From NCBI GenBank assembly GCA_038045985.1, contig JBBSXA010000030.1, forward strand, positions 1 to 57,486: DNA of 57,486 nucleotides. The letters run 5' to 3'. This document shows positions 2,007 through 55,504 of the stretch, in pieces. Position numbers and translations under genes: made by a program. The stretch is from Nanobdellota archaeon (GTDB lineage Archaea > Nanobdellota > Nanobdellia > Pacearchaeales > GW2011-AR1). The notes below the pieces were generated by a model. The model was not told the origin of the DNA. It worked only from the letters and a program-made list of their open reading frames with translations, and searched no databases. Position 1 is the first letter of the stretch, and every line of letters starts with the position of its first letter.

Positions 2007-2153
2007 TGGCTCTGGGGAGAATTTAACTCCCGACCCCTGCCTGACTCAGCACAATTTGTTGAACGCATAGACTGAAAATTGGAATTTTCTGCCGATTTGC
2101 CGAACTTCATTCTTCTCATGAGAGCAGTGCTCGTAACACTGAGCTACAGAGCC
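2007..2153 (-). tRNA. tRNA with anticodon CAU (Met or Ile2), ~74-nt intron at or next to position 37/38
   Basis: Minus-strand read: GGCTCTG TA GCTC AGTGTTAC GAGC A CTGCT CTCATGA [~74 nt] GGCAG GGGTC GGGAG TTAAATT CTCCC CAGAGCC A. All four stems pair, with one G-U in the anticodon stem. Confidence 0.75.
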
Positions 2154-4109: not shown

Positions 4110-7100
4110 ATGGCATACAACTTCCAATTAATAGAAAAGAAATGGCAGAAGAAGTGGGAAGAAAAGAAGATTTTTCAAGTGAAGGAAAATGAAAAAGGCA
4201 AGAAGAAATTTTATGTCCTTGACATGTTTCCTTACCCCTCTGGAGAAGGTTTGCATATGGGTCATGCTTTTGTTTTTTCCCTAGGAGATATTTATGCCAG
4301 ATACAAGAGGCTTCAAGGATACAATGTTCTTTATCCTATAGGCTATGATTCTCTTGGATTGCCTGCAGAGAATGCTGCAATAAAAAAAGGAATTCATCCG
4401 GAGGTTTATACTGCAAAGTCTATTGCTAACTTTATGAAGCAGCAGAAGGCGATGGGATGGAGTTATGACTGGAACAGAATGTTCAAGACTTCTGATCCTG
4501 AATTTTATGTATGGGATCAGTGGATTTTTCTTAAAATGCTTGAAAAAGGGCTTGCTTGCAGGAAAAAATCTGCTGTTAACTTTTGCAGTAAATGCCAAAC
4601 TGTGCTTGCTAATGAGCAGGTTGTTGGAGGTAAGTGTTGGAGACATGAAGATACTAATGTAGAAATTAAGCATCTTGAGCAATGGTATTACAAAACTACA
4701 AATTATGCTGAAGAGCTGCTTTCAGGTTTAGATAAATTGGAATGGCCTGAAAGAGCTAAAACAATGCAGAGAAATTGGATTGGAAAAAGCTATGGGACAG
4801 AGATTGAGTTTGAAGTTGAGAATCCAGAAAGAAAGATTTCTAATGTTGTTATTGTACATGGAAGTGCTGATGACAAAAATGATAAAGAGTACAATAGACA
4901 TTGGATGATTTGGGCTAGAAAAAGATTGGAAGAAAATGGTATTAAGGTGCTTGCTCCAAATATGCCAGAACCTTGGGGTTCTAGCTATGAATCTTGGAAG
5001 AAAGAATTTGAAAAAATTTCGAACGGTATTAATGAAAATAGTATTTTAATTGGGCATAGCAGAGGTACTGCTTTTTTTGTAAAATGGCTGGGAGAAACTG
5101 GGAAAAAAGTTAAGAAATTAATATTAGTTGCTCCTTGGAAAGTTCCTGATAAGGAATTTAAAAAAAGTTTTTATAATTTTGACATAGACATAACTGTGAA
5201 GAATCAGGTTAATGAAATTGTTTATTTTACTTCTAATAATGAGGAAGCAGATGGAAGAAAAAGTTTGAAGATGTTTTTGGATGTAATTGGTGGCAGGGTT
5301 GTGGAATTAAAGAATCATGGACATTTTACGCGTGAAGAAATGGGGACAGACGAATTCCCTGAAATTTTGGCAGAAATTAATCCAAATGAAAAATGGCCTA
5401 TATTCACAACGAGACCCGATACTGTCTACGGAGTTACTTTTATGGTGATTTCTGCACAACATTCTAGACTTTACGAATTAGTTACAAAAGAACATAAAAA
5501 AAGTGTTGATAATTTTTTGAAGAAACTTGGGAGCGTTTCAGAGAAAGAACTTGAGCTTATGGGAAAAGATGGTGTTTTTACAGGCTCTTATGCAATTAAT
5601 CCAATGACTAAAGAAAGAATTCCTATTTACGCAGGAAATTTTGTTGTTGCAGATTATGGTTCAGGAATGGTTATGGCTGTTCCTGCGCACGACCAGAGAG
5701 ATTATGAATTTGCGAAGAAATATGGTTTGAAAATTAAGCAGGTTATTTCTCCAATGTATACAAATATGACTGGTTCTGATGCTTATAGGCATAATGAAGA
5801 GCCTGTTAAAAGAAAAGCAGTTGTTGCGATTGTTAAAAATCCAAAGAATAACAAATATTTACTTTTGCAGTGGAAGAAAAATGATTGGAGGGGTTTTGTT
5901 ATTGGAGGTCTTGAAAAAGGAGAAGATCTAATAAAAGCTGCTAAAAGAGAGATTGAAGAAGAAACAGGATATAATGATATTAAATTTGTTAGAAAGCTTG
6001 ATGGTGTTGTTCATTCTAGGTTTTACCATGAAGTTAAAAAGCAGAATAGAGAAGCTGAATTTGAAACTATTTACTTTGAGTTAAACAGTGAAAAGAAAAG
6101 CAAAGTAAAGGAAGAAGAAAATAAGATTCATTCTATTGTTTGGATTGATGAAGATAAAGTTGATAGTTTTCTTGTTAGAGATAATGATATTCAAGTTATT
6201 TGGAGAAAGTTTAAAGGCAAGGAGTGTTATGAAGGCTACGGAAAGCTAATTAATTCAGGAGATTTTAATGATCTTGATAATGATGAAGCGAAAGAACATA
6301 TTGTCAAGTGGCTTGAATCTAAAAAACTTGGGGGAAAAAAAGTTCAGTATAGGCTAAAAGATTGGCTTATTTCCAGGCAAAGATATTGGGGAACACCTAT
6401 TCCTATTGTTTATTGCGATAAATGTGGAATTATTCCTTTGCAGGAAAAAGAACTTCCAGTTACACTACCTAAGAATGTAAAGTTTGGAAAAGGAAATCCT
6501 CTTCTTTCCAATGAAAAATGGATTAATACTAATTGTCCTAAATGCAAAGGAAAAGCTAAAAGGGAAACAGACACTATGGACACTTTTGCGAATTCTTCAT
6601 GGTATTATTTAAGATATGCTGATTCAAAAAATAAGAAAAAGATATTTGATTCTAAAATGGCAAACTATTGGTGCCCAATAGATCAGTATATTGGCGGGCC
6701 AGAGCATATAACAATGCATTTAATTTACATAAGATTTTACACAAAATTTTTGAGAGATTTAGGTCTTATTGACTTTGATGAACCTGCTTTGAGATATTTC
6801 ACTCAAGGAGTTGTTAAAGGCAGTGATGGAAGCAGAATGAGCAAGTCTAAAGGAAATGTTGTAGAACCTTTGGATACTATTGAAAAATATGGTGCTGATT
6901 CTTTGAGATTATATTTAATGAGCGCTTCTGCTCCGGATAGTGATTTTGACTGGGATGAGAAAGGCATTCAAAGTAGCTTTAAATTTTTGCATAAAGTTTA
7001 TGATTATTTTTATGATGTTAAATTTAGCAAGGCTGATGAAAGAGTTGAGAGCAAGCTGAACAAGACTGTCAAAGAAGTTGCAAATTTAGTTGAAGATTTT

Positions 7101-20660: not shown

Positions 20661-20795
20661 TGAAAACAACCTACGGTTTTTTTCGATTTTCCTCAATTTG
20701 CAATTTATGTCGATTTCTAATTGCCTCAGAGGAAATCGCGTAGACTCTCCTTTTTGCTTATTAGATAAAAGAGTATTTAAAATTTGGGAATTTTA

Positions 20796-20867
20796 TGAGC
20801 CTGCCAGGATTCGAACCTAGATCAACGGGGCCGAAACCCGTCATTCTATCCATTGAACTACAGGCCC
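20796..20867 (-). tRNA. tRNA-Arg (anticodon UCG)
   Basis: Minus strand: GGGCCTG TA GTTC AATGGATA GAAT G ACGGG TTTCGGC CCCGT TGAT CTAGG TTCGAAT CCTGG CAGGCTC A. Confidence 0.85.
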
Positions 20868-20962
20868 TTAATAATTTAATAATGATTAGGTTTTTATACT
20901 TTAGGAAAAATCAACGCCGTTTTATAGAGAAGATTTTTATACTTTCGTCTTTTCTTTTTAAC

Positions 20963-23789: not shown

Positions 23790-23897
23790 ATTGATAAATG
23801 ACTGAATAAGATTATAAAGTTTAGCCCTATTTTTGATTGTTCTATTGTAACTTATAAGGGGTTACAAAATGGAAAGATTTATAAACTCGTTATCTCA

Positions 23898-24341
23898 ATG
23901 TTTTGTATGGAATTTGAAAATATAAATGAAGAGGCTTTTTCCGATTTGGAAAAGCCCAGAAAAACCAGAAATACCCCTGAAAGCGACGTAATTCAGAAGA
24001 TAGGCAAAGAAAGAGTGACTTCTCTTAAAAATTTTATTTTAGAGCTTAATATTCTTATTGAAGAAAGGGAAAAGCTGAGCAGGATGATTACTTCTGAAGT
24101 TGAAAAAATAAAGATGGAAGTGGATAATTTTCTTAAGAATAACACTTCTTTTGATGCTGACGGCTTTAGGGAAAGAAATGGCTTGAGGCTGAAGCAGATA
24201 GAAGTTTCTGAACTGGAATTAAATGAAAAGGTCAATTGCTGGAGAGATGTTGCTTTGCTCAAAAAGGAATTAAGAGAAAGGCAGAAAGAGCTTAGCGAGA
24301 AACAGGAAAGAGTTTCTATGTTTGACCAGATTTTGAAATAA
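23898..24341 (+). CDS. hypothetical coiled-coil protein
   Basis: Charged heptad-like sequence. Its stop is 1 nt before the ATPase start, suggesting translational coupling. Confidence 0.55.
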   Translation: MFCMEFENINEEAFSDLEKPRKTRNTPESDVIQKIGKERVTSLKNFILELNILIEEREKLSRMITSEVEKIKMEVDNFLKNNTSFDADGFRERNGLRLKQIEVSELELNEKVNCWRDVALLKKELRERQKELSEKQERVSMFDQILK

Positions 24342-24342
24342 A

Positions 24343-26658
24343 ATGCTGCAGCAGAGATTAACAATTGAAGATCTTTGCAGGAAGCTGAGGCCCGTATTTG
24401 GAAAAAAGATAGATGATATTTATCTTAGATATGCCATGGCAGAGTCTAGAGAAGAAAAGGAAGATATTATGCATATGATCAGCGCGCTTTACAGTAAAAA
24501 CCTGAATAAACTTCTTGATAACCAGATACTTTTGGAGCCGCCTAATGAGGATGCTCTGGATGGAGACTATCATTTGGCCGATGTTAGCTATGCTGGAAAA
24601 AAGATATTCTCATTCAATCTTAGAGAAAAAGACTGGTCTAGGCATGTTTGCATAAGCGGAATGAGTGGAAGCGGAAAAACTACCTTGGCTTTTAACATTC
24701 TTCAGACTTTTATTGATCATGATAAGCCTTTTTTAGTTTTTGACTGGAAAAAAAGCTTTAGACCTTTGCTTTTAGCAAGCCAGGAAGTTGTTTGTTTTAC
24801 AATAGGAGATGAATCTGCAAGCAATATGTTTAAAACAAATATAAACAGGCCTCCTAAAGGGATTGACCCTAAAGAATGGATAAATGTTTTGTGTGATCTT
24901 ATTATTGAAAGTTTTTCAGCTTCTTTTGGTGTTCATAAAGTCTTGCTTGAGACTCTTGATGAGGCTTTTGAGCATTTTGGAGTTTATAATGGGTCTGACA
25001 ACTACCCTACATGGAACAATATTAAATGGTATCTTGATCAGAAAATAGAGAAGACAAAAGGAAGAGAAGCAGGATGGCTTGAAAGCGCCCTCAGAATAGT
25101 GAGCGTTTTGACTTTTGGAAACTTTGGAAAAGTCTGCAACAGCAAAGAGAAAGGAGTGCTTTCCGTTGAAGATCTTCTTAACAAGAAAGTTGTTTTTGAG
25201 CTGAATGCCCTTAGCAATATAGAGAAAAAGTTTTTCTGCGAGTTTGTCCTTACATACATTTACAAGCTTAAGAAAGCAAGACAAAAAAATTCTGAGAGCA
25301 AGTTCGTCCATGCAATTGTTGTGGATGAAGCGCATAATATTTTTCTCAAAGGAAATCCTCATTTTACAAAAGAATCTGTAACAGACATGATATACAGAGA
25401 AATGAGAGAATACGGAACAAGCCTTATCTGTTTGGACCAGCACATCTCAAAATTAAGCGATACTGTTAAGGGAAACAGCGCTTGCAACATTGCCTTCCAG
25501 CAGCAGCTTTCCCAGGATATTTATGATATAAGCGGACTGACACAATTGAGAGATCAGCAGCAGTTTTTTTCCATGCTTCCAGTCGGGTCTGCGATAGTCA
25601 AGCTTTCTGAAAGATACACTTCGCCGTTTTTGATTGAAGTTCATAATGCTGAGCTTAGGGGAAAAACAGTCACAGATGAAGAGGTTAAGAGCAGAGCAGA
25701 GTTTCATATTATGGGAATTAGCGTTGAGAAGGAAGCCGATAAAGAGTTCAACGATGCTTTAATTGGCAGGAAAACCATGGAAAATCCCGTTAAAAGAAAA
25801 GAAGTTAGCATCGAAGATATTAAGCACGATAGAACTGTTTTCAAAGCTGAGGATATTCTTCCTTTAGATGATGGAGGAATTGTTTATGAAGTTATCAATG
25901 AACCTCTTGGAGGAAGTTTCCCAAAAAGAGCGAACAACGAGTTCCTTGCCAATGAACCTTCTGGAGGAGTGTTTCCAAGAGCAGATTCTGAAATTCTTGC
26001 TGATGAATATTTTGGGAAAATGTTTCCAAAAACTAACGAAGTTCCAAAACCAGTATTTGCAATAAATCAAAATTTTGAAAGTGTTCCAAGAGCAGAAATA
26101 ATTGTTAATAAAATTTTTGAAAATAAAGAAGATGATGTTTTTTATGAACTTAAAAAGATGGCTTACGGTATTTCTTTGACTCCTAGACAAGAGGTTTTAT
26201 TTGATTATATAAAAGGAAGAGTTAAGCTAGGCGACAGTTTAAAGGAACTTGAAAATACTCTTTTGTTCTACAAACAGGAAGGCAATTATAAAGCTGAAGA
26301 TGTTTTTGTTGCTGTAAATCATTATCTGTCGAGCAAGCTTGCTAATCTTTTTCCAAGCAATAAAAAGGAAGAGAAAGCATATTCTCAAATTGTTACCCCT
26401 ATAAAGAGTCGAAAGATTTATAAAGAAAATCATTCTAGAATAACTGGCAGTTCAGCGTCTGACGAGGAAAGAGTAATCTCTTTTCTGAGCGCTAATCCTG
26501 GAAAGGATTTTGGCACGGTTGAGCTGTACAAAGAGCTTGGATTGTCTTCAAGGAAAGGAAACAAGATTAAGAATGAATTGCTTGAGAGAAAGATTATAAT
26601 CATAGAAGAAAAGAAAAATGACAAAGGCTGGAAAAAAATTATTGCATTGGCAAAGTAG
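24343..26658 (+). CDS. HerA/DUF87-type (VirB4/CedB-like) P-loop ATPase with a C-terminal winged-helix domain
   Basis: RHVCISGMSGSGKTTLAFNIL (Walker A), PFLVFDWKKSF, AIVVDEAHNIF (Walker B), ICLDQHISKLS. The C-terminal tail is wHTH-like (SFLSANPGKDFGTVELYKELGLSSRKGNKIKNELLERKII). Confidence 0.75.
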   Translation: MLQQRLTIEDLCRKLRPVFGKKIDDIYLRYAMAESREEKEDIMHMISALYSKNLNKLLDNQILLEPPNEDALDGDYHLADVSYAGKKIFSFNLREKDWSRHVCISGMSGSGKTTLAFNILQTFIDHDKPFLVFDWKKSFRPLLLASQEVVCFTIGDESASNMFKTNINRPPKGIDPKEWINVLCDLIIESFSASFGVHKVLLETLDEAFEHFGVYNGSDNYPTWNNIKWYLDQKIEKTKGREAGWLESALRIVSVLTFGNFGKVCNSKEKGVLSVEDLLNKKVVFELNALSNIEKKFFCEFVLTYIYKLKKARQKNSESKFVHAIVVDEAHNIFLKGNPHFTKESVTDMIYREMREYGTSLICLDQHISKLSDTVKGNSACNIAFQQQLSQDIYDISGLTQLRDQQQFFSMLPVGSAIVKLSERYTSPFLIEVHNAELRGKTVTDEEVKSRAEFHIMGISVEKEADKEFNDALIGRKTMENPVKRKEVSIEDIKHDRTVFKAEDILPLDDGGIVYEVINEPLGGSFPKRANNEFLANEPSGGVFPRADSEILADEYFGKMFPKTNEVPKPVFAINQNFESVPRAEIIVNKIFENKEDDVFYELKKMAYGISLTPRQEVLFDYIKGRVKLGDSLKELENTLLFYKQEGNYKAEDVFVAVNHYLSSKLANLFPSNKKEEKAYSQIVTPIKSRKIYKENHSRITGSSASDEERVISFLSANPGKDFGTVELYKELGLSSRKGNKIKNELLERKIIIIEEKKNDKGWKKIIALAK

Positions 26659-27193
26659 ATTAAGTTTCATATTCACACAAATCAACAATCACTAAAAACA
26701 AAAACCCTGGCATACCCTCCACGAGGATATTTCGTTAGCACTTTTTTCTTGAATTATCAACTATGCTAAAATTTCTTTAAATTTTGGCTGTAAAACCCCG
26801 GAAAACCCTGAAATTACTGTTTAATTTCATACATATATAAACAGACAACAAACACTATTCATTGGAGGACCCTTGAATAAACAACAATAAATAAACAACA
26901 ATTTGTGAATCTATCTATTACTAGTAGAACACAAAACACACATACAAACCTCTTTCAGAAAGGAGAATTAAACAAAGCGAAGTTGTAACCTTATAACCTT
27001 ATTGTAAGGGCTGCGTTTTACTTTAACTTTTTCACTTGGCCAATGTTGCAAGCAGTAGATGTGCAGCCCTTTTTTCTCTGCGTTTTGAGAAAATCAAAAA
27101 ACACAAAACGAGCATTAGACTTTGTCTTTTGCTTTGAAAATCACAAATCAACAATCTTAACAACAATCTTAAAACACCAAACTTGGAGGTTTT

Positions 27194-27706
27194 ATGAAGA
27201 CATTTTTCTTTTTAGGTTTTGGCACTATGCTATTTATTTTAGCAGGTGTACTGACAATTTCTTTCTGGTACGACTTCACTAATAATTGTGAGGACTACCT
27301 TAAGTTGGCCGGAGATGCGCCGACTGTCGAGAAGGCAAACGAGTTTCTTGGGAAAGCATTGGGATTCCTGGAAAACAATGGCCTTACCTCTGGAAATTCA
27401 GCCTTCTTTTTTAAAAAGCCAGATGCTGATATCGGCATTTGGTACAATCAAATTAAAGGGGCTTATTCAACAACGCAGGACATTCTTGAGAGAATGAGAA
27501 ACAGCGCTTCTCCAGTTTCTCAGCTTGAAAAGGACAATGCTCTGATGAAAATCAGGGAAGTTGTTCTTGATGCGGGGAAAAATGGAGTCGAGGTTACTGT
27601 GCCAGCCCACATTAGCTGGTTTCCTCACCAACTTCTCATGCTTTTTCTCTGGACTCTCTCTGTTGGTTTCATTATTTTCGGGTTCGCTATTCTGATAGAG
27701 TGGTGA
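27194..27706 (+). CDS. island membrane protein: N- and C-terminal TM helices flanking a helical ectodomain
   Basis: GGAGG lies 4 nt before the ATG; both ends are hydrophobic. Confidence 0.6.
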   Translation: MKTFFFLGFGTMLFILAGVLTISFWYDFTNNCEDYLKLAGDAPTVEKANEFLGKALGFLENNGLTSGNSAFFFKKPDADIGIWYNQIKGAYSTTQDILERMRNSASPVSQLEKDNALMKIREVVLDAGKNGVEVTVPAHISWFPHQLLMLFLWTLSVGFIIFGFAILIEW

Positions 27707-27748
27707 TCACATAACAAGGACAAGCCGAATTTTTCAGTGAGGTGAAAC

Positions 27749-28316
27749 ATGAATCTTTTTTTTCAAATTTGGGGCGGAGTTTTCTATCTTCTGAACAAGA
27801 TTTTTTTCTCCATTTCTGAAAGAAAAGGAAATGAAGAGAGAAAAAGGAAGTGGAAGATAGCAGCATGGTCAGTCTATCTTATAGGACTTCCTGGCTGGCT
27901 TTACATATTGACTTCCAGCAAAGCTTGGATAGTTGCTTCTGTTGAGCTGTGTGGTGCTCCCTCAATGATTGTGGGACTTGCTGCAGCTATAAAGGGAAAT
28001 GAACAAAATTTCCCAGTGGTTTTATTATGTTGCAATGATAGGCTCTGTTTTTGGCATTGCTCTCAGCATCTATGATTTCGGAGGCATTACTAAATGGAGC
28101 CAGGTGGTTGAGCTGGGAGTTGTTGCAGGGTTTCTTTTTGGCTCTTATCTATTGGCTAAAGAGCACGCCTCCGGATATCTCTGGTTCATGCTTATGAATT
28201 CCTCGAATTGCATTCTTATGTATATTCAGGGGAATTTCTACATGGCGTTGCAACAGGCTTTGTCTTTACTTTTTGTTGTTTATTCTTTCTATCTAAGGAA
28301 GAAGCACATCACTTAA
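27749..28316 (+). pseudogene. multi-pass membrane protein split by a frameshift near 27995-28015
   Basis: ORFs 27749..28075 and 27999..28316 overlap in different frames, and both are TM-rich. The join lies in aaagggaaatgaacaaaatttccc. Confidence 0.5.
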
Positions 28317-28330
28317 CTCATGGAGGAGTT

Positions 28331-28567
28331 ATGATCTTTTTGAGATTTTGGATTGCTTCAGCTTGTGAGGCAGTTCTGAGATTTGTCTACACGTTTGTGG
28401 CTTTGGAATTTGTTTCCAGACACATTCCTGTAGTTGTGAGAAGGCATTTGTTCTGCTTTTGGACAAGTGCTAAGTTAAACCTAATAAGGGAGGAGGTGAA
28501 GCTTAAGATTTCTATCTTGATTTTCGTGATGGTCTCCATACTCTGGTTTGCTGGAGACAAGTGTTAA
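28331..28567 (+). CDS. small island protein (78 aa, hydrophobic)
   Basis: GGAGG lies 4 nt before the ATG at 28331. Confidence 0.5.
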   Translation: MIFLRFWIASACEAVLRFVYTFVALEFVSRHIPVVVRRHLFCFWTSAKLNLIREEVKLKISILIFVMVSILWFAGDKC

Positions 28568-28597
28568 CCTTTAGCTTAATTTTGTCTTGGAGGAAAC

Positions 28598-28768
28598 ATG
28601 TCAAAAAATTTATCCAAGGACTTTCTTATTCAAGAAGGTCTTAGTGAGATTGAAGAGCCAAAATCTGGGGCGGGAGCTTTATCTTTTGCTCAGTTCTATG
28701 GAACCGATAACCCTTTTTGGCTTCTTGTTGAGCCACAGCTTGATGTCTTTGAAGGAGATGATTTTTAA
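28598..28768 (+). CDS. small acidic island protein (56 aa; not in the ORF track because it is <60 aa)
   Basis: ttGGAGGaaacATG; product MSKNLSKDFLIQEGLSEIEEPKSGAGALSFAQFYGTDNPFWLLVEPQLDVFEGDDF. Preferred over the TTG-started track ORF 28587..28811. Confidence 0.5.
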   Translation: MSKNLSKDFLIQEGLSEIEEPKSGAGALSFAQFYGTDNPFWLLVEPQLDVFEGDDF

Positions 28769-28833
28769 CGCGTTTCATCCTGTCGAACACAACAACAATT
28801 TTCACAATTGAATTTGAACTTTTTTTCAGGAGA

Positions 28834-29121
28834 ATGGAGTTTCTGAATATGAAGAATGGAAAAAACGGAAATTCAAAAAGGGAGAAGAAAGGAAAGTCTT
28901 TCAATGGATACATCCTCAAGGAGCTCGTAGAGAAGATTAATTCTCGAATGAAAGATTACGAGCTCAAGGCTATTCTTATTGGGAGAGGAGTTCATATCGA
29001 TACACGGAAGTTCTACCCGGTTATAACAGCCTTGAGAATCAAAAGAGGGAGGCTTTGCAAACAGATAATGTCAATGGCTCCTGAGAAATCAGAGGCTAAA
29101 GACAAGAGAAAAAGAAAGTAA
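28834..29121 (+). CDS. small basic island protein (possible nucleic-acid binder)
   Basis: cAGGAGaATG; Lys/Arg-rich at both termini. Confidence 0.55.
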   Translation: MEFLNMKNGKNGNSKREKKGKSFNGYILKELVEKINSRMKDYELKAILIGRGVHIDTRKFYPVITALRIKRGRLCKQIMSMAPEKSEAKDKRKRK

Positions 29122-29183
29122 CAAACAACAGTTTCGAGCTAAACTCGAAAAATCAAACACAAACCATTTCTCAAGGAGATTTT

Positions 29184-29354
29184 ATGAAAAATTCTCATGT
29201 TTTGGCAATTTTATTTGCCGCCATCCTTTTTCTTTTAGGTGCACTTTTTGCTCCACCTATCTTTCTCAGAGTGTCTATTGCTCTGATTGCCCTGAGTTTG
29301 ATTTTTTCCTTACTTCACAAAAAGCACAGAAAAGATCCTAACAGTCACGAATAG
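29184..29354 (+). CDS. small two-TM island protein (56 aa; not in the ORF track)
   Basis: AAGGAGattttATG; product MKNSHVLAILFAAILFLLGALFAPPIFLRVSIALIALSLIFSLLHKKHRKDPNSHE. Confidence 0.5.
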   Translation: MKNSHVLAILFAAILFLLGALFAPPIFLRVSIALIALSLIFSLLHKKHRKDPNSHE

Positions 29355-29435
29355 CGGTTGCTCAGATGGTTTCTCAGACATTGGATGTCGGCATTTCTTC
29401 GGCTTTGGATTGGTGAAATCTTTCAAGGAGAATTT

Positions 29436-29759
29436 ATGTCGACGATGAAAGAAAAGAAAGGCTTGTCATTTAATATATGGATTGGCCTTTTAAGCCTTGC
29501 AGGATTGGCTTTGTATGTTTATGCCAACAGAGAGATTGTTTCTACCGTCTTTCTCGCGGAAGACTTCACAGCTTATCTTGGCAGAGGACTGATTTGCGGG
29601 ACTACAGGTTTTTTTTGGAGCCCTCTTATTGGTTTTCTTAAAGCACTTTTCACGGTTCTTGCCTTTGTTGTTGCTTTGGCGATTGTTGCATTTTTCTTCG
29701 CGTACATTATCTTTGGCTTCACATTTCAAGATGCTCTCAAAGCTGTGAGCGCATTGTAG
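29436..29759 (+). CDS. island membrane protein (~3 TM)
   Basis: AAGGAGaatttATG at 29436, in frame with track ORF 29358..29759. Confidence 0.55.
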   Translation: MSTMKEKKGLSFNIWIGLLSLAGLALYVYANREIVSTVFLAEDFTAYLGRGLICGTTGFFWSPLIGFLKALFTVLAFVVALAIVAFFFAYIIFGFTFQDALKAVSAL

Positions 29760-29767
29760 GGGGATTT

Positions 29768-30166
29768 ATGGAAATCAGAGACATAGTGTTTGCGATTATT
29801 GCAGTAGGATTAGTGGTGATTGTTTTTATAACAAAGCTTTCATCATACCAATCTGCAAAGGCACAGAAAACTTCGAGTTATGCAATGATCGCAATTGCAG
29901 CTGTTTTTATACTGATTGTTTTTGGATGGCTTGCCACTCAATACGATTATGATAAAATGTCTGCAGATTTTAAAGGGGGAAAGCTGGAACTTTCTTTGCA
30001 GCAATCAAAGAGAAATTCTGCCGGGGATTCTGTTTCTGTTCAAGATTCTATTAATTTTGAAGTTCCTGCCGAGAAGATAAATCAGGGATGGAAGATGATA
30101 GGAAAGATTGCCGGGAGCTTGGATGAATTGTTTAACAAACCTAAAGACAAACCTGACAGCTTGTGA
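29768..30166 (+). CDS. island membrane protein (2 TM plus a soluble tail)
   Basis: GGGGGatttATG; two hydrophobic helices. Confidence 0.55.
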   Translation: MEIRDIVFAIIAVGLVVIVFITKLSSYQSAKAQKTSSYAMIAIAAVFILIVFGWLATQYDYDKMSADFKGGKLELSLQQSKRNSAGDSVSVQDSINFEVPAEKINQGWKMIGKIAGSLDELFNKPKDKPDSL

Positions 30167-30228
30167 GGAGGAATATGGAAAGTGATGAACTTTTAATTAT
30201 TAACAATAAACTTTGAAGGAGGTTCTAT

Positions 30229-30525
30229 GTGAGTGAGCATGTTTCAAAAGAGGTTTTCGCTATTGTTCGCGCTCCTAAAAATATTGGAGATCATAGCAAC
30301 TATATTGTTACTTCTCCTTATTACAATCAGGGGCAGTTCAAGAGAGATGATTCAATAACTGTAGATCGAAAGAAATGGCTGGAAAATTTTCAACCTGAGG
30401 AAGGCGTATTTGTCATTCTTTTGGGTGTCTTTGGGAAACCTAAAGGTTTGCGTGCAAGCTCTGCTAGGTTCGCTACTCCTTATGAAATACAGTTTCATAC
30501 AGCAAAAAGCAAAGAGCAAGATTAA
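30229..30525 (+). CDS. small soluble island protein
   Basis: AAGGAGG precedes a GTG start. Confidence 0.5.
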   Translation: MSEHVSKEVFAIVRAPKNIGDHSNYIVTSPYYNQGQFKRDDSITVDRKKWLENFQPEEGVFVILLGVFGKPKGLRASSARFATPYEIQFHTAKSKEQD

Positions 30526-30538
30526 CGAAAGGATTTTT

Positions 30539-30790
30539 ATGAGTTTCATTCAGATTTTAGAATTTATTGTTGTGATGCTACTCATTTTGGTAGCTTTCAC
30601 TCAAGTGATTATTCCTCTTTTGAAGGGCACTCTTGTTTTTCCTTTTTTTCGCAAGGCTAGGAAGAAGGAGCATGAGATTGTTTCCATTGAGGAAGAGAGA
30701 GATGAGGTTCGGCTTGATCAAGAAATTGCTCGAAAAAGAGACAAGCTTGATCAGGAGAAGAAAAAGGGAGGTTTGTCAAAGGACAATTAA
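30539..30790 (+). CDS. small island protein: one TM plus a charged coiled-coil tail
   Basis: ATG at 30539, in frame with track ORF 30410..30790; hydrophobic N-terminus. Confidence 0.5.
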   Translation: MSFIQILEFIVVMLLILVAFTQVIIPLLKGTLVFPFFRKARKKEHEIVSIEEERDEVRLDQEIARKRDKLDQEKKKGGLSKDN

Positions 30791-30853
30791 TCCTTTTTAC
30801 ACGTTCGTTTTTTAAAACTTTAAACTGTTAACATTAAACTTTTGGAGAATTAT

Positions 30854-32047
30854 ATGTCAATCCAAAGCAGTTCTAGCATGAGGCAATTGTCGAAGATTCT
30901 TGGTATTGGTATTGCCGTCCTTGTTTTTTTGTTCTTGATAGTCGGAGCAGGAAAACTTTGGCAGAATGTCGATGCTAACGAGATCGTCGTGATTCAAGCC
31001 CCCGTGTCTGGAGAGTTGAACTGGCACGTCACACCTGGGCTTAAGTGGCAGGGATGGGGTTCAGTTACTACCTATCCAAAGAGAGCGATTTACCAGTTTG
31101 AGATTTCTGTGCGCTTCAATGATGGCGGCCATGGCACCATGTTTGGCAGTGTCCAATATGATATGCCAAATGATGTTGATAATCTTAAAAAACTACACAC
31201 GAAGTACGGATCAAAGGAAGCGATTCAGAGTCAGCTTGTTAAGACTGTTACTGACAAGTCGGTATACATGACCGGGCCTTTGATGACTTCAAAAGAAAGT
31301 TATGCTGAAAAGCGTAATTATCTTCTAAGCTATGTTGAAGATCAGATTGTGCATGGAGTCTACAAGACTCTCTCGAGAGAAGCAAAAATGATTGATCAGA
31401 TGACTGGGGCAGAGAAGACTATCACTGTTGTCGAGATCGTTTTGAAAGAGGGTATTCCTGAAAGGCAAGAGGAGGCTGTTCTAGCTAGTTTTGGCATCAG
31501 ACCGTTTAACTTTGCCATCGAAAAACTTCCATATGATGAGGCTGTTGAAACTCAAATAAAGATGCAGCAGCAAATCACTATGGATGTCCAGACAGCAATT
31601 GCCGATGCGAAGAAGGCTGAACAGAGGACAATCACTGTTGTTGAACAAGGCAAGGCTGATGCTGCCAAGGCGAAGTGGGATCAAGAAGTCATAAAGGCCC
31701 AGCAGGTTACTGAAGCTGAGCAGAAGTTGGAAGTTGCTCGACTTGGGGCTCTTGCTGCCGAACAATACAAAAAGGAGCAGATTCTTAGAGCAGATGGTGA
31801 TTCCGAATACAAGCGCAGAGTCATGGAAGCTGATGGCGCTCTTACTCAGAAGCTCGCGACTTACAAAGACGTCAATATCCGGTATGCTGAGGCTATTGAG
31901 AAGTACACAGGAGCTTGGGTACCTTCTATTGTTATGGGAGGTGATGGGAAATCCGGAACTTCAAACGGTGCTCAGGATTTGATCAGTCTCCTTTTAGCAA
32001 GGACTGCAAAAGACCTTTCCCTAGATCTTAGCGTCAAGGGCAAGTAA
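30854..32047 (+). CDS. SPFH/Band-7 (flotillin/YqiK-like) membrane-scaffold protein
   Basis: N-terminal TM, an SPFH-like core (EIVVIQAPVSGELNWHVTPGLKW...), and a long Ala/Glu/Lys/Gln coiled coil (AKKAEQRTITVVEQGKADAAKAKWDQEVIKAQQ...). Confidence 0.65.
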   Translation: MSIQSSSSMRQLSKILGIGIAVLVFLFLIVGAGKLWQNVDANEIVVIQAPVSGELNWHVTPGLKWQGWGSVTTYPKRAIYQFEISVRFNDGGHGTMFGSVQYDMPNDVDNLKKLHTKYGSKEAIQSQLVKTVTDKSVYMTGPLMTSKESYAEKRNYLLSYVEDQIVHGVYKTLSREAKMIDQMTGAEKTITVVEIVLKEGIPERQEEAVLASFGIRPFNFAIEKLPYDEAVETQIKMQQQITMDVQTAIADAKKAEQRTITVVEQGKADAAKAKWDQEVIKAQQVTEAEQKLEVARLGALAAEQYKKEQILRADGDSEYKRRVMEADGALTQKLATYKDVNIRYAEAIEKYTGAWVPSIVMGGDGKSGTSNGAQDLISLLLARTAKDLSLDLSVKGK

Positions 32048-32126
32048 GTCTTCTTTCAGACACACTCTGGCCAAGAGTGTTATGCACCTTCCTCTCTTGT
32101 ACTGAGAGTTACGCTCTTTCTGCCAT

Positions 32127-32158
32127 GAAGGCCTTTGATGTAAAAGTTAGAGGCCTTC
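32127..32158 (+). terminator. 8-bp GC-rich hairpin after the SPFH gene, with a T8 run ~17 nt downstream
   Basis: GAAGGCCT ...16 nt... AGGCCTTC; a second hairpin ACACTCT ggcca AGAGTGT lies at ~32061-32079. Confidence 0.35.
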
Positions 32159-32249
32159 GATTTGATTTAGTCTTCTTTTTTTTCTGATTGTTTTCTATGT
32201 GGAATTCTAAATTTTTTCTTCCGGAATTTCAGAAATCTATCTTTCTTAC

Positions 32250-32603
32250 CATATTTTTTTTGCAAAATTTCAGGTTAATATGCATGCAAGTTATGCGATT
32301 TACAAAAATATTACCTGTCTTTTTATTATTAACAATTATATTTTAGAATCTTACATTAAATCTTTGGTTTTTTACTTAACTGGTAATTTAGCAGACACTT
32401 TTTTATTTAATTTTCCGTTTAAACATATTTTTTTGCAAAATTTATGATAAGAAAGCTAAATTTATTTGATTAATTTGGACAATTTTCTGTAATTTCTACT
32501 TTATTTTATTATTAATATTATTCTATTTTGATTAAAGGTTATATTTAGACATTATTTTACATTTTAATTTTTTTCTTAAAAACATATTTTTTTTGCAAAA
32601 TTT
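32250..32603 (+). repeat. Three copies of a ~21-nt box CATATTTTTTT(T)GCAAAATTT spaced ~160-175 nt apart in an AT-rich intergenic region
   Basis: Boxes at 32250-32270, 32424-32443 and 32583-32603. The spacers share degenerate similarity (ttttattattaa...). Confidence 0.7.
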
Positions 32604-32662
32604 TAAATAAGGTTTATTTATTCTTGAGCAAATTTAATAAACTCTTATTTCTTTTTGCTTTT

Positions 32663-45137: not shown

Positions 45138-45803
45138 ATGGATATTGATGAAATTGAGATAAAATGGCTTGGACATTCTGGTTTTCTTGTTAAGAACTCT
45201 AAAACGATTTATATTGACCCTTATAATATCAAGGAGCAGGAAAATAAGGCAGATATAATACTGATAACTCACGGACATTATGACCATTGCAGCTATGCAG
45301 ACATTCAGAAAATTGTTAAGGAAGGAACCAAAATTTTTGTGACGGCTGACGCACAGAGCAAAGTTGCAAGATTTACCATTCCTATTCAAATTGAAGTTGT
45401 GGAGCCTGGCCAGGAAATTGATATTGGCGACATAAAGATTGAGACTTTTTCTTCATATAATATTGACAAGAGTTTTCATCCAAAAGAGGAATCTTGGGTT
45501 GGCTATTTGATTAAAATGAATGGTGTTGTTATTTATCATTCTGGAGACTGTGATTTTATTCCTGAAATGCAGAAGCTTACAGGATATAAACAGCATGGAA
45601 AGAAATTTATTGCTTTGCTCCCTGTTGGAGGAAGATATACTATGAACGCTGAAGAAGCCTTTGAAGCTGCTAAGGTGATTAAGCCTAGCCTGGCAATTCC
45701 AATGCACTGGGGCTCTATAGTTGGAAGCGAAGAAGACGCAAAAGAGTTTGTTGAGCTCTGTAAGGAGGAGGGAATTGATGCTGTTATTTTGGAGAAGGAA
45801 TAA
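45138..45803 (+). CDS. MBL-fold metallo-hydrolase (UPF0173-like)
   Basis: ITHGHYDH (HxHxDH); ATG at 45138. Confidence 0.8.
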   Translation: MDIDEIEIKWLGHSGFLVKNSKTIYIDPYNIKEQENKADIILITHGHYDHCSYADIQKIVKEGTKIFVTADAQSKVARFTIPIQIEVVEPGQEIDIGDIKIETFSSYNIDKSFHPKEESWVGYLIKMNGVVIYHSGDCDFIPEMQKLTGYKQHGKKFIALLPVGGRYTMNAEEAFEAAKVIKPSLAIPMHWGSIVGSEEDAKEFVELCKEEGIDAVILEKE

Positions 45804-45804
45804 G

Positions 45805-46842
45805 ATGAAATACGTTATCGGAAACGAAAAAATATTTTATGATTTTGTGAAATCTATTAAAAAAGACGACAAAGTTGCAATTATAAGCCATAATGATGTT
45901 GATGGGGTTATATCTCCAATTGTCCTGGAAGAAATTTTGAAAAGAATGAATCTTTCTGTTGATTATTTTAATTTTATTAATTATTCTAAAGGAATGTTTG
46001 ACTCGGAAATTGATAAAATGAAGGAGGAGGGAATTACTAAAGTATTTTTGACAGATATGAATGCAGACGAGTCTGATATAGACGGTTTTGAAAGGCTTAG
46101 AGAAGATTTTGATGTTTTTCTTATAGATCATCATCCAGTTTCTTACGAATTGAAGAACAAAGATAACATTATTAAGACTGGTTCTTCCGATTGCTCTGCA
46201 TTTACTATTTATATTCTGGGGAGGGAATTTTTTGATTTATCAGAATTAGACTGGCTTGTTTGTTCTGCTATGATTGCAGACTGGTCTTTTAACTCAGAAG
46301 AGAATTTGAAATTCATTTTGGAAAGATATCTTGATTTTGACAAAGATAATATTGAAAGTTCCGAAATAGGAAGATTAATGATTAAAATATCCAATGCGAT
46401 AGTTTATTTTAAATCTAATTTGAAAAAAGTTTATGATTTTATTAAAGAAAAAAATTTTAATGAACTTACTAAAGGAGCAGAGATGGTTCAAAGAGAGTTG
46501 GAAAGATGCATTGAAAAATATAAAGAAGAAGCAGAATTTAATGAAGAGAAAGGAGTTTATTTTGCTTATTTTAATTCTAGTTTTGGTTTGACTTCTATTA
46601 TTGTGACCCTTATGTCTAAAGAAGATTACGACAAAGTTTATTTTTTAGCTTCAGATGATAGAAAAAATATAAAAGTTAGTGCTAGATGCCAATCAGGCAG
46701 AGTTGATTTGAATTATGTTCTTAGAAAATCTATTGAAGGATTTAATGAGGCGACTGCAGGGGGTCATAAGAAAGCTTCAGCGGCTTTAATTATGAAAAAA
46801 GATCTTGGGAAATTCAAGGAAAGACTGCTGGAATTCATATAA
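45805..46842 (+). CDS. DHH/DHHA1-family phosphoesterase (second paralogue)
   Basis: ISHNDVDGVIS, LIDHHP, AGGHKKASAA. The ATG at 45805 is 2 nt after the MBL gene stop. Confidence 0.75.
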   Translation: MKYVIGNEKIFYDFVKSIKKDDKVAIISHNDVDGVISPIVLEEILKRMNLSVDYFNFINYSKGMFDSEIDKMKEEGITKVFLTDMNADESDIDGFERLREDFDVFLIDHHPVSYELKNKDNIIKTGSSDCSAFTIYILGREFFDLSELDWLVCSAMIADWSFNSEENLKFILERYLDFDKDNIESSEIGRLMIKISNAIVYFKSNLKKVYDFIKEKNFNELTKGAEMVQRELERCIEKYKEEAEFNEEKGVYFAYFNSSFGLTSIIVTLMSKEDYDKVYFLASDDRKNIKVSARCQSGRVDLNYVLRKSIEGFNEATAGGHKKASAALIMKKDLGKFKERLLEFI

Positions 46843-47393: not shown

Positions 47394-48473
47394 ATGGTAT
47401 TAGATTTTGCAAAAGAAGCAGTCGAAAAGTCGAGCACACATAGCATCAATTTTGATGAATTGAGAGCTGGAAAAGCTAACATAAAAGTTATTGGTGTTGG
47501 AGGAATGGGCTGCAATGCAGTTACATGGCTTTTTAACAAAGGCATTAACGGAGCTAACATTTTTGCCACAAATACTGACGCTTTGCACCTTTCTGTCACA
47601 AAAGCTGACGAAAAGATCCTTATTGGTAAAGAGCTTACCAGAGGACTTGGATGCGGAGGCTTGCCTCAAAGAGGAAGAGAAGCTGCAAAAGAGGCAATTG
47701 TTGATATAAAGAGAGCTGTTTCAGGCGCAGACATGGTTTTTGTCATTTGTGGTGAAGGCGGAGGAACAGGCACAGGAGCTGCCCCTGTTATTGCACAACT
47801 TGCTAAGGAGAACGGCGCTATTGTTATTGGTGTTGTTACAATGCCTTTTGAGGCTGAAAAAGCAAGAGTTGACAAAGCTGAATTTGGGCTTCAAGAGCTA
47901 AGAGAAGTAACCAACACATGCATCGTGCTTGACAACAACAGACTTGTAGACATTGCTGGACAATTGCCAATTGAGCAGGCTTTTGCTGTAGCAAACGAAC
48001 TTGTTTCTACAATGGTTAAGGGTATTGTTGAAACCATTACCTTGCCAAGTTTGATTAACTTGGACTATGCTGATGTTTCCTCTATTATGAAGGACGGAGG
48101 AGTAGCTGTTATAGGCATTGGAGAGGCAGATACGCAAGACAGAGTTAACGAAGCTGTAAAGCAAGCACTTACACATCCTCTACTTGACGTGGATTATCAA
48201 GGTGCTACTGGAGCTTTGATACACATTACTTGCGGTCCTGACTTGAAACTGGAAGAGTTCGATACTATAGGAAGAACTGTTTCAGACAATTTGAGCCCTG
48301 ATGCACAGGTTATTATTGGAGCTAGAATCAGCAAAGACTTTGTAGGAAAAGTCAGAGTTATAACAATAATGACTGGAGTTAAGTCTCCATATGTTCTTGG
48401 AAGAAGCAATGACGATCACAGAATTCCCGCTTCAAGAGAAATGTCTGATTTGGGAATAGAAGTCTGGAGATAA
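47394..48473 (+). CDS. ftsZ: cell division GTPase FtsZ
   Basis: GVGGMGCNAV, GEGGGTGTGAAPVIA (tubulin signature), NRL. Confidence 0.95.
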   Translation: MVLDFAKEAVEKSSTHSINFDELRAGKANIKVIGVGGMGCNAVTWLFNKGINGANIFATNTDALHLSVTKADEKILIGKELTRGLGCGGLPQRGREAAKEAIVDIKRAVSGADMVFVICGEGGGTGTGAAPVIAQLAKENGAIVIGVVTMPFEAEKARVDKAEFGLQELREVTNTCIVLDNNRLVDIAGQLPIEQAFAVANELVSTMVKGIVETITLPSLINLDYADVSSIMKDGGVAVIGIGEADTQDRVNEAVKQALTHPLLDVDYQGATGALIHITCGPDLKLEEFDTIGRTVSDNLSPDAQVIIGARISKDFVGKVRVITIMTGVKSPYVLGRSNDDHRIPASREMSDLGIEVWR

Positions 48474-55411: not shown

Positions 55412-55504
55412 CGCCCAGGGTAGGACTCGAACCTACGACCCCACGGTCACTGTGTTTTATCAAACGTAACAGCCGTGTGCTCTAACCGACTGAGCTACCC
55501 GGGC
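55412..55504 (-). tRNA. tRNA-Asn (anticodon GUU) with a ~19-nt intron at 37/38
   Basis: Minus strand: GCCCGGG TA GCTC AGTCGGTT AGAGC A CACGG CTGTTA [cgtttgataaaacacagtg] A CCGTG GGGTC GTAGG TTCGAGT CCTAC CCTGGGC G. Confidence 0.85.

Follow-up and report, generated by a model that had tools for sequence, protein, structure and literature searches.

The window analysed here is a 57,486-bp contig from the metagenome-assembled genome (MAG) of a groundwater nanoarchaeote (Nanoarchaeota; locus tags AABW50_), with an overall G+C content (GC) of 0.338. Our subject is an 8.4-kb block of co-directional genes within it (23830-32200). This block is a composite: a native archaeal operon, encoding a coiled-coil protein and an ATPase with a C-terminal winged helix-turn-helix (wHTH) domain, adjoins a foreign island of about 5 kb. 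The island, at approximately 27.19-32.2 kb, is DNA of bacterial origin, of the type found in Patescibacteria (candidate phyla radiation, CPR), and it keeps bacterial expression signals and a higher GC. The explanation that we consider probable is that the native operon lies beside a landing pad, used throughout the lineage, for DNA that is foreign and largely bacterial. At least 36 related DPANN genomes show hypervariable content in the slot 3' of the ATPase, which is also GC-richer, rich in Shine-Dalgarno (SD) motifs, and rich in small membrane ORFans.

Composition and boundaries of the island

All of the open reading frames (ORFs) that a preliminary description had listed in the block were found on the + strand, at the same coordinates. 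That description treated 23830-32200 as a single foreign block in which G+C rises. The rise is present in the second of the two gene units: 27194-32047 has a GC of 0.405, against 0.330 (standard deviation 0.013, maximum 0.358) for windows of the same size outside the block, and it is at 27-31.5 kb that tetranucleotide usage departs furthest from the rest of the contig, with the largest distance in the window. All island genes have a GC of 0.37-0.45. Unit 1 (23898-26658), at 0.36, falls within the range of host genes (0.338±0.035; GC at third codon positions (GC3) 0.285±0.054; n = 48), so the compositional anomaly is real but confined to about 27.2-32.2 kb. Because only the right two thirds of the block are foreign in both composition and phylogeny, the term "foreign block" is valid for that part alone; the left third is a native gene pair.

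The two units also differ in their translation signals. For at least 10 of the 11 island starts, an SD motif (GGAGG, GGAG or AGGAG) lies upstream at a distance of 5-9 nt, in line with the SD-led genes of the preliminary description. Elsewhere in the window, about 3 of 60 genes have one. No such motif stands before either the coiled-coil gene or the ATPase gene.

The edges of the island are marked by the following features:

26830-27193, + strand: A/C-rich leader with short tandem repeats (CAACAAT motifs), GC 0.32; the left boundary of the island lies somewhere inside it
32126-32190, + strand: intrinsic terminator of bacterial style, a 14-bp GC-rich hairpin followed by a T run, at the right end of the island

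On the left, alignment with relatives collapses past approximately 26830. On the right, GC drops from 0.40 (32048-32200) to 0.19 (32201-32662). A search for attachment-site (att) or target-site duplication (TSD) repeats at the island ends gave only short AT-rich pairs at chance level, such as 26738/32395 with 17 of 21 positions matching. Rfam at E ≤1 found nothing credible in the spacers, and a scan for sigma-70 promoters gave no excess over shuffled sequence.

A rival explanation is a Patescibacteria fragment mis-joined into a DPANN contig during assembly or binning. Both types of organism share groundwater samples, and in one public assembly a contig stops at 27062, within the spacer. We nevertheless consider such a chimera extremely improbable. 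The junctions were recovered in four independent assemblies that are 99.97-100% identical to the window: the ENA assembly Hain_H43 (81 kb) spans both, while GCA_964361515 and two Logan runs span the right one. In addition, analogous GC-rich, SD-rich islands occupy the same position in dozens of unrelated MAGs.

The native coiled-coil and ATPase pair

The left part of the block contains two genes:

23898-24341, + strand: coiled-coil protein, 147 amino acids (aa), soluble, GC 0.342, without an SD motif; conserved upstream partner of the ATPase
24343-26658, + strand: ATPase of the HerA/VirB4 superfamily (DUF87), 771 aa, soluble, native
ATPase domain layout, by residue: N-terminal helical region; RecA-like core, approximately 95-475; disordered variable linker, 477-609; small helical domain, 610-670; wHTH, 705-771

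The assignment of the 771-aa protein to the HerA/DUF87 type was borne out by its Walker A (GMSGSGKT) and Walker B (VVDEAH) motifs and by a match to Pfam DUF87 (E 1.1e-8). In an AlphaFold2 (AF2) model built from an alignment of 50 sequences, the predicted local distance difference test (pLDDT) exceeds 90 across residues 1-475. The winged helix proposed for the C-terminus is also present in the model, as three helices and a beta-hairpin (helices 707-717, 725-732 and 736-748; strands 752-759 and 762-769; pLDDT about 90). Seven of its residues, Y729, S735, R737, G739, G762, W763 and K765, are invariant in the 50-sequence alignment, as is the ATPase core. The N-terminus of the model is helical with one hairpin, and no HAS-barrel is evident.

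Foldseek matched the model to the C-terminal domain of DndH, the C-terminal domain of VirB4, Sulfolobus HerA and the HerA proteins of defence systems (E 1e-13 to 1e-11). The template-modelling score by target (TM-target) is 0.74-0.76 against isolated ATPase domains, and only 0.43-0.57 against full-length HerA. FtsK and TraB are absent from the top fold matches; the motor fold is HerA/VirB4-like, not FtsK-like. The best functionally named NCBIfam matches are CedD at 56 bits (cut-off 600, E 2.5e-15), VirB4_CagE at 23 (cut-off 643) and HerA_Thermprot at 23 (cut-off 800), all far under the cut-offs of these families. A transmembrane (TM) segment was looked for in the ATPase and none was found. The coiled-coil protein likewise has no TM segment, and it matches nothing in Pfam or NCBIfam.

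In 63 genomes that represent species of Nanoarchaeota, Pacearchaeota and Woesearchaeota, an ATPase homologue of 46-75% identity is present, in one place per genome, and in 58 of the 63 species loci a homologue of the coiled-coil gene lies upstream. The gene order of the window, gatD, a small gene, DUF1003, coiled-coil gene and ATPase, is shared by about eight closer relatives and by locus L094, and gatE follows further downstream in several of them. Such synteny and vertical conservation remove the pair from the foreign part of the block. Judged by this conservation, the coiled-coil and ATPase genes are an old, vertically inherited pair of the Nanoarchaeia. No Pfam matches to NurA, Mre11 or Rad50 were found in the annotated ATPase neighbourhoods; the protein is not a HerA linked to NurA, Mre11 and Rad50, a grouping that would have spoken against the preliminary description.

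These results bear on the proposal that the 8.4 kb as a whole, with the ATPase as a part, represents an integrated mobile element that has no capsid and derives from a plasmid or virus. Many archaeal plasmids and viruses have an ATPase of the FtsK/HerA type as a hallmark gene, residues 96-156 of the window's ATPase match PHROG 2666 ("terminase large subunit"), distant DUF87 homologues lie on actinobacterial and archaeal plasmids, and the SPFH family encoded at the other end of the block also occurs in crAss-like and jumbo phages. The ATPase pair is, however, host-like in composition and sits in one place, with conserved chromosomal synteny, in the 63 species genomes; its plasmid and phage relatives are only about 25% identical, and the ATPase profile had no match in IMG/VR. 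Among the proteins of the block, Pfam, PHROGs and NCBIfam revealed no integrase, Rep, capsid or transposase, an absence that the preliminary description had already noted. A tRNA target was considered and rejected, the nearest tRNA being tRNA-Arg at 20796-20867, 3 kb upstream of the block. There are no flanking direct repeats, and PADLOC and PHROGs gave only scattered matches across 148 island proteins from relatives. We therefore consider a mobile element of this kind very unlikely. The suggestion of an integrated capsid-less element, made in the preliminary description, was not upheld in the sense of a self-mobile unit: mobility genes, flanking att repeats and a tRNA target are missing, and the genes do not travel together in the donor lineage.

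The slot downstream of the ATPase in related genomes

The interval between the ATPase and gatE differs from one relative to another. In the window it measures 6.0 kb and holds the island described here. The locus with the closest ATPase, L094 (75% identity), has 2.6 kb with a phosphodiesterase/sulfatase-like gene and two tiny ORFs, GC-richer and SD-led. L017 has 3.3 kb and a small-TM and SPFH gene pair of a different clade from that of the window, and L019 and L035 have about 9 kb each, filled with unrelated genes.

To describe this variability across the lineage we compared the two sides of the ATPase in the 34-36 loci with 8 kb or more to either side. Downstream, only 12.6% of the genes belong to a family shared with another locus, versus 50.6% upstream. 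Mean GC is 0.401 downstream and 0.343 upstream, with a jump of 0.10-0.15 in several loci. Genes with a TM segment make up 47% of the downstream and 22% of the upstream set, the mean of the per-locus median protein length is 110 aa compared with 161 aa, and 77% of downstream genes, against 61% of upstream genes, lie on the strand of the ATPase. SD-like motifs precede 43% of downstream and 21.5% of upstream genes (Fisher p = 4e-14). No downstream family was found near the ATPase in at least 4 of 60 loci, apart from one at position +13. Pfam searches of 148 downstream proteins gave no common family; the matches included bacterial-type FliS, TraT and N-terminal methylation pilin motifs, and a TonB_C domain was found in the slot of locus L091. 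The PHROG matches mentioned above were equally dispersed, and PADLOC returned five scattered hits among the 148 proteins, so the candidate reading of the slot as a defence island was rejected.

The same figures can be read in another way, namely that the coiled-coil protein, the ATPase with its wHTH, the 8-mer array described below and the downstream small membrane proteins form one machine for DNA transfer or cell contact, with membrane parts that evolve fast or are exchangeable. The lineage-wide co-localisation, the shared orientation of the downstream genes and the frequency of TM segments among them are what such a machine would lead one to expect, and the best named NCBIfam and fold matches of the ATPase, CedD, VirB4, HerA and DndH, are DNA translocases. 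Against it stand the near absence of any recurrent downstream family, the presence in the cargo of unrelated bacterial proteins (FliS, TraT, TonB_C, sulfatase) and of housekeeping-type enzymes, the lack of a TM segment in both the ATPase and its coiled-coil partner, the low CedD, VirB4 and HerA scores, and the absence of FtsK and TraB from the top fold matches. On balance we consider the single-machine explanation unlikely.

Under the explanation that we prefer, a landing pad beside a native operon, the island would have arrived through one or several recombination events at a place used across the lineage, and not as a self-mobile element.

Genes of the island

The island contains the following genes, labelled g03 to g13:

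27194-27706, + strand: g03, 170 aa, two TM segments around a soluble domain; first island gene, GGAGG 5 nt before ATG, GC 0.421
27749-28316, + strand: g04, polytopic membrane gene, interrupted in a TTTCCC run (about 28008-28013) by a 1-nt frameshift; probable pseudogene
28331-28567, + strand: g05, 78 aa, one TM segment, ORFan, SD GGAGG, no family match; the least certain island gene
28598-30166, + strand: ORFan module g06-g10, with SD motifs: g06, 56 aa, acidic; g07, 90-95 aa, very basic; g08, 56 aa, two TM segments; g09, 107 aa, two to three TM segments; g10, 132 aa, two TM segments
30229-30525, + strand: g11, 98 aa, soluble, ORFan, SD GGAGG, no family match (Pfam, NCBIfam)
30539-30790, + strand: g12, 71-83 aa, one TM segment and a charged helix; upstream partner of the SPFH gene
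30854-32047, + strand: g13, SPFH/Band-7 scaffold, 397 aa (401 from TTG 30842), GC 0.451, GC3 0.445

The preliminary description counted eleven small ORFs ahead of the SPFH gene, eight of them with TM segments. There are ten genes, because 27749-28075 and 27999-28316 are the two halves of one frameshifted gene, and seven to eight of the small ORFs carry TM segments.

One line of evidence on origin comes from g13. Its identification as an SPFH protein was confirmed by structure: the approximately 45 top fold matches in the PDB are all SPFH proteins (prohibitin, HflK/C, erlin, flotillin, stomatin and QmcA; E 2.5e-9 to 1e-4). The AF2 model consists of a TM helix (6-35), a beta/alpha domain (36-224) and a coiled-coil helix of about 100 residues (229-326). 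Pfam PF01145 (Band_7) matches 31 of 38 aligned family members, the best at 2.6e-10, and does not match g13 itself at E ≤0.1. g13 does match PHROG 11908 (E 6e-43), and the family is also found in crAss001, in Vibrio jumbo phages and in a 462-kb uncultured phage. More than 2100 homologues of g13 were found. Among the closest ones, which are 60-74% identical, some bear the names Patescibacteria and Minisyncoccia. The nearest of all (74%) is encoded on contig L014. The bacterial homologues lie among housekeeping genes, such as ribosomal-protein and hrcA-grpE-dnaK operons, the F1Fo ATP synthase and DNA polymerase III alpha, on contigs of up to 1.1 Mb. In a neighbour-joining tree g13 nests inside a Patescibacteria clade (bootstrap 98-100), and it is only 41-47% identical to the SPFH proteins of the Nanoarchaeota loci L017 and L032. 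Its placement and identities mark g13 as a Patescibacteria-type xenologue.

L017 (4190-5759) and L032 (19731-21053) carry their own pairs of a small TM gene and an SPFH gene in the slot after the ATPase; these belong to a different clade of the family, which groups with low-GC contigs of IMG/VR.

In all bacterial loci that were examined, and in three viral contigs of IMG/VR, the SPFH homologue directly follows a small gene homologous to g12, and this pair is the only part of the block whose proteins were found on viral contigs in that database. g12 has no match in Pfam or NCBIfam and so no NfeD-family assignment. The cargo would consist mostly of small membrane proteins, with g12 and g13 as the functionally interpretable module: together they should build a membrane-anchored SPFH cage or microdomain, like those of HflK/C, QmcA and flotillin.

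A 27-nt leader repeat, AACTTTtAAtTaTTAACAaTAAACTTT, stands directly before the SD motifs of g11 and of the SPFH gene (30188-30214 and 30816-30842), and a weaker third copy lies at 32317-32343 in the region upstream of gatE. The repeat could be an internal promoter or a leader common to island genes.

The second gene with a traceable origin is g03, which has about 90 homologues at 43-64% identity, from organisms named Moranbacteria, Parcubacteria or Patescibacteria. It matched no entry in Pfam, NCBIfam, PHROG or PDB, and its profile had no match in IMG/VR. One further homologue from Nanoarchaeota is known: it belongs to locus L091, about 2 kb downstream of that genome's own coiled-coil and ATPase pair. 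The two archaeal copies were never sisters (0 of 200 bootstraps), and each is nested among bacterial sequences, which indicates two independent acquisitions into the same slot.

The two halves of g04 are collinear with one intact ORF of 188 aa in locus L073 (47% identity), and the frameshift between them is present in the independent assemblies too. g04 is therefore probably a decaying pseudogene; a gene of the landing-pad cargo would already be in decay, and a broken component also speaks against a single transfer machine. A likeness of g04 to PnuC/NMN transporters is weak: it matches Pfam PF04973 (NMN_transporter) at E 0.0004-0.006 and 17-21 bits, under the cut-off of 27.3, and the intact L073 orthologue gives no match.

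The L073 locus has a peculiarity of its own at 5440-7074, within its post-ATPase slot. The last 23 or so codons of the intact PnuC-like gene (...LFWQQMVSLVFIVDACRVAR) recur about 1 kb downstream, and the two copies of the LFWQQMVSLVFIVDACRVAR end enclose two minus-strand ORFs of 136 and 81 aa. The arrangement resembles what an insertion with target duplication would leave at the 3' end of the PnuC-like gene.

For the ORFan module, a partial counterpart was found on a 1341-bp contig from Hainich well H43 (L093, identical to L095). It holds g06, g09 and g10 in the same order at 50-65% amino acid identity, together with a g07-like ORF recognised by eye, and lacks g08; at 71% nucleotide identity, it comes from another organism of the same aquifer. 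The ratio of nonsynonymous to synonymous substitution rates (dN/dS) for g06, g09 and g10 against this copy is 0.28-0.32, a sign of purifying selection. Because of these ratios and the conserved order, we take g06, g09 and g10 to be real genes that travel as a module. Purifying selection on these three would also suit the single-machine explanation. An exhaustive HMMER search with g10 returned one homologue cluster only among 1.84 billion representatives, and a metagenome scan for relatives of the module found only the same 1.3-kb contig. Matches of g10 to PrgI, SLATT and holin (E 0.002-0.01) were rejected as TM-segment noise.

Weighing the origin of the island

Several observations weigh against a landing pad for bacterial DNA, or at least limit how far it can be taken. 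No donor contig was found that carries several island genes together. In Patescibacteria, g03 and the SPFH pair have unrelated gene surroundings, and their homologues were never neighbours in the contigs examined; an origin in a single event is for this reason only one possibility. Conflict between gene phylogeny and host was seen for g13 and g03 only, and g05-g11 are ORFans whose origin could not be traced, even by the exhaustive search with g10 and the metagenome scan. Recombination scars, att or TSD, were not found at the island ends. Archaea can use SD motifs natively for operon-internal genes. In L017 and L032, too, the SPFH genes exceed their hosts in GC (0.43-0.47 versus 0.27-0.30), so part of the GC signal could reflect protein family or expression instead of recency. 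Finally, the strict co-localisation of islands with one conserved ATPase suggests a functional link beyond a mere hotspot.

Some of these observations would suit an island that is native, that is, a fast-evolving, highly expressed locus of surface proteins in which GC3 and SD motifs follow expression and the Patescibacteria are the recipients. The GC-rich SPFH genes of L017 and L032 lie in AT-rich hosts, most island genes are ORFans without a bacterial homologue, and the direction of transfer was inferred from clade nesting only. The homologues of SPFH and g03 tell otherwise: over 2100 of the former and about 90 of the latter are overwhelmingly bacterial, in housekeeping contexts on the long contigs described above, and g13 is far closer to its bacterial counterparts than to the other Nanoarchaeota copies. 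Moreover, operon-internal host genes in the window have no SD motif. A native origin of the island is, in our judgment, highly improbable.

The landing-pad explanation fits the known exchange of membrane-related genes between CPR bacteria and archaea of the DPANN group. In PMC12455944, interdomain transfer between the two groups is described as involving mostly membrane-related proteins, with reference to Jaffe et al. (2016, Environ Microbiol 18:5072), and transfers from Patescibacteria to Nanoarchaeota are reported from groundwater. The case described here agrees in donor and recipient lineages, in the groundwater habitat and in a cargo mainly of small membrane proteins of unknown function. 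It differs in being a compact, SD-led, co-directional 5-kb island in a defined slot that always adjoins the same ATPase operon. The island itself is thus a fresh instance of a known phenomenon, CPR-DPANN gene exchange. The slot offers a concrete, testable entry place for membrane-protein genes shared between DPANN archaea and CPR bacteria, and the g03 family was acquired there twice independently.

A conserved box and an 8-mer array next to the ATPase

The 3' end of the ATPase gene, and the 5' end of its operon, carry short conserved elements:

26667-26676, + strand: conserved box TCATATTCAC, directly after the ATPase stop codon
26699-26817, + strand: degenerate GAAATACC array, with the inverted pair GGCATACC...GATATTTC at 26709-26733 and GTAAAACC-cc-GGAAAACC-ct-GAAATTAC at 26790-26817
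23959-23975, + strand: GAAAAACC-a-GAAATACC, two 8-mer copies inside the first codons of the coiled-coil gene

The box was compared over the 70 nt that follow the ATPase stop in L017, L018, L022, L024, L025, L028, L032, L035, L059, L076, L094 and the window. Written as (A/T)TCATATT(C/T)A(C/A), its core is invariant or nearly so in 12 of 12 aligned relatives, and it precedes the GAAATACC array. Across the lineage the array consists of an 8-mer, (t)GAAATACC(t/c), with some copies as inverted pairs, within the first 500 nt or so past the ATPase stop. Exact copies of GAAATACC occur at 1.00/kb in the first kilobase downstream of the ATPase, against 0.036/kb elsewhere, and copies with at most one mismatch at 5.3/kb against about 1/kb. 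Of 60 loci, 39, about two thirds, have at least two sites beside the 3' end of the ATPase gene. A second, lower peak, also seen across the lineage, is situated 2.5-3 kb upstream of the ATPase stop, at the operon's 5' end. In the loci that are most divergent or GC-rich, no such motif is apparent.

The array of the window is degenerate, and it is orthologous to the arrays with exact GAAATACC/GGAATACC in L017, L094, L018 and L024. Even so, 26664-26813 is the richest 150-nt stretch of the window, with 8 sites at no more than two mismatches compared with a mean of 1.87±1.29 (top 0.07%), and 23856-24005, at the start of the operon, is tied for second with 7. A genome-wide polarity of GAAATACC like that of KOPS was considered and rejected because the background density of the motif is only about twice the compositional expectation.

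An 8-bp repeat array beside the ATPase, together with a conserved wHTH whose recognition region is invariant, speaks for a DNA-transfer machine; the degeneracy of the array in the window counts against it. A narrower form of the idea leaves out the downstream genes: the coiled-coil protein, the ATPase with its wHTH and the flanking GAAATACC arrays might constitute a DPANN-specific, chromosomally fixed system for the translocation of double-stranded DNA, analogous to TraB/clt or FtsK/KOPS. The wHTH would then load the motor at the 8-mer array, and neighbouring DNA would be preferentially exported, imported or recombined. If this were true, it would explain why the adjoining stretch is the main entry port of CPR genes and why it fills with exchangeable small membrane proteins. 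We regard such a system as quite unlikely.

Comparison with known systems

A conjugation module of TraB, clt and spd was reportedly described by Vogelmann and colleagues (2011, EMBO J 30:2246). The repeats that Streptomyces TraB recognises, clt, are 8 bp long, and TraB works together with small membrane proteins, Spd (PMC4447253), a precedent that favors a DNA-transfer role here. In both cases a translocase of hexameric type has a C-terminal DNA-recognition domain, 8-bp repeats adjoin the ATPase gene, and downstream, on the same strand, come several genes for small membrane proteins with poor conservation. Unlike TraB, which is FtsK-like and membrane-anchored, the ATPase of the window is HerA/VirB4-like by fold and soluble. 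Its module is chromosomal and vertically inherited, without Rep, Int or a plasmid context, the downstream genes are at least partly foreign cargo, and the wHTH is, by analogy, a putative binder of the 8-mer. Streptomyces TraB is the closest functional analogy, with the Ced and Ted systems more distant.

The Ced and Ted systems of archaeal DNA import combine the ATPases CedB and CedD with CedA, CedA1 and CedA2 (PMC9905601, PMC11868833). They share with our locus a HerA-clade ATPase core, CedD being the best functionally named NCBIfam match, and the proximity of small TM proteins. The differences are a score of 56 bits against the cut-off of 600, the lack of a TM segment or a VirB4-like N-terminal domain, and the absence from the locus of a conserved VirB6-like (CedA) or VirB2-like pilin partner, the partner here being a soluble coiled-coil protein. 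Because membership of these families fails on scores, on TM and N-terminal domains, on conserved membrane partners and on plasmid context, we assign a dedicated DNA-transfer role a low probability.

HerA-NurA and the HerA proteins of defence systems (Sir2-HerA, DUF4297-HerA, TdpAB, DndFGH) resemble the window ATPase in fold (Foldseek E of approximately 1e-13 to 1e-10) and in two-gene operon structure. They differ from it in that the window ATPase has no NurA, Mre11, Rad50, Sir2, DUF4297 or nuclease partner and no evident HAS-barrel. It also carries a C-terminal wHTH, and it is conserved in the lineage, once per genome, rather than patchy in distribution.

In loci of the ess/T7SSb type in Firmicutes, a conserved gene for an ATPase of the FtsK/HerA superfamily is followed by strain-variable genes for small membrane, effector and immunity proteins. 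Unlike these loci, the window has no WXG100, LXG or EssA/B/C core, its ATPase is soluble with a wHTH of DNA-binding type, and its host is an archaeon.

For the distal part of the island, the closest comparison is with SPFH operons (HflK/C, QmcA-YbbJ, flotillin-NfeD). As in these, g13 has an SPFH fold, an N-terminal TM anchor and a long helix of the kind that builds the cage in solved homologues, and the gene upstream of it invariably encodes a small membrane protein as its partner. The partner of g13 (71-90 aa, one TM segment and a charged helix) is not NfeD, unlike that of flotillin. The subfamily of g13 also differs in being centred on Patescibacteria, with members in crAss-like and jumbo phages, and g13 itself lies below detection by Pfam Band_7. 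The SPFH module with its small partner is thus a widespread, uncharacterised subfamily of Patescibacteria and phages.

Across the Nanoarchaeia, the architecture of an ATPase with a wHTH, an 8-mer array and a hypervariable island of bacterial type appears to be undescribed in the literature consulted, and it is the part of the locus most worth following up. Should a mechanism tie the ATPase to the slot, the ATPase would represent a novel type of archaeal device for gene acquisition or DNA transfer. A translocation system, if it exists, would be the first candidate for a mechanism by which genes pass between the two radiations of ultra-small organisms. If the ATPase is not tied to the slot, the latter would still be a useful marker for recently acquired host-interaction genes in DPANN archaea.

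Other features of the window

Beyond the right edge of the island lies a region that belongs to the host:

32233-32603, + strand: AT-rich host region upstream of gatE, with three copies of ACATATTTTTTT(T)GCAAAATTT

The copies lie at 32250-32270, 32422-32443 and 32583-32603; the two of 21 nt are identical, and the first is at the right edge of the island. The core of ACATATTTTTTT(T)GCAAAATTT also occurs about 60 nt upstream of gatE in L017 (6745-6761). Because L017 shares the core before gatE, the element looks like a native 5' element of that gene, perhaps a promoter, that has been triplicated in the window.

Outside the island, the only genes with an upstream GGAGG are 45778-46842 and 47394-48473, where local GC reaches 0.377 at 47-48 kb. 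These may be further acquired genes, or the motifs may be due to chance.

At the other end of the neighbourhood, the 477-aa ORF annotated as "gatD" starts inside tRNA-Arg(TCG) (20796-20867), which is on the opposite strand; the extension 20795-20960 is an artefact, and the real start is near 20960. Rfam also identified a 147-nt tRNA at 2007-2153 (- strand) that ARAGORN missed, and the tRNA-Thr at 55412-55504 (- strand) has a length of 93 nt. Both are presumably intron-containing archaeal tRNAs.

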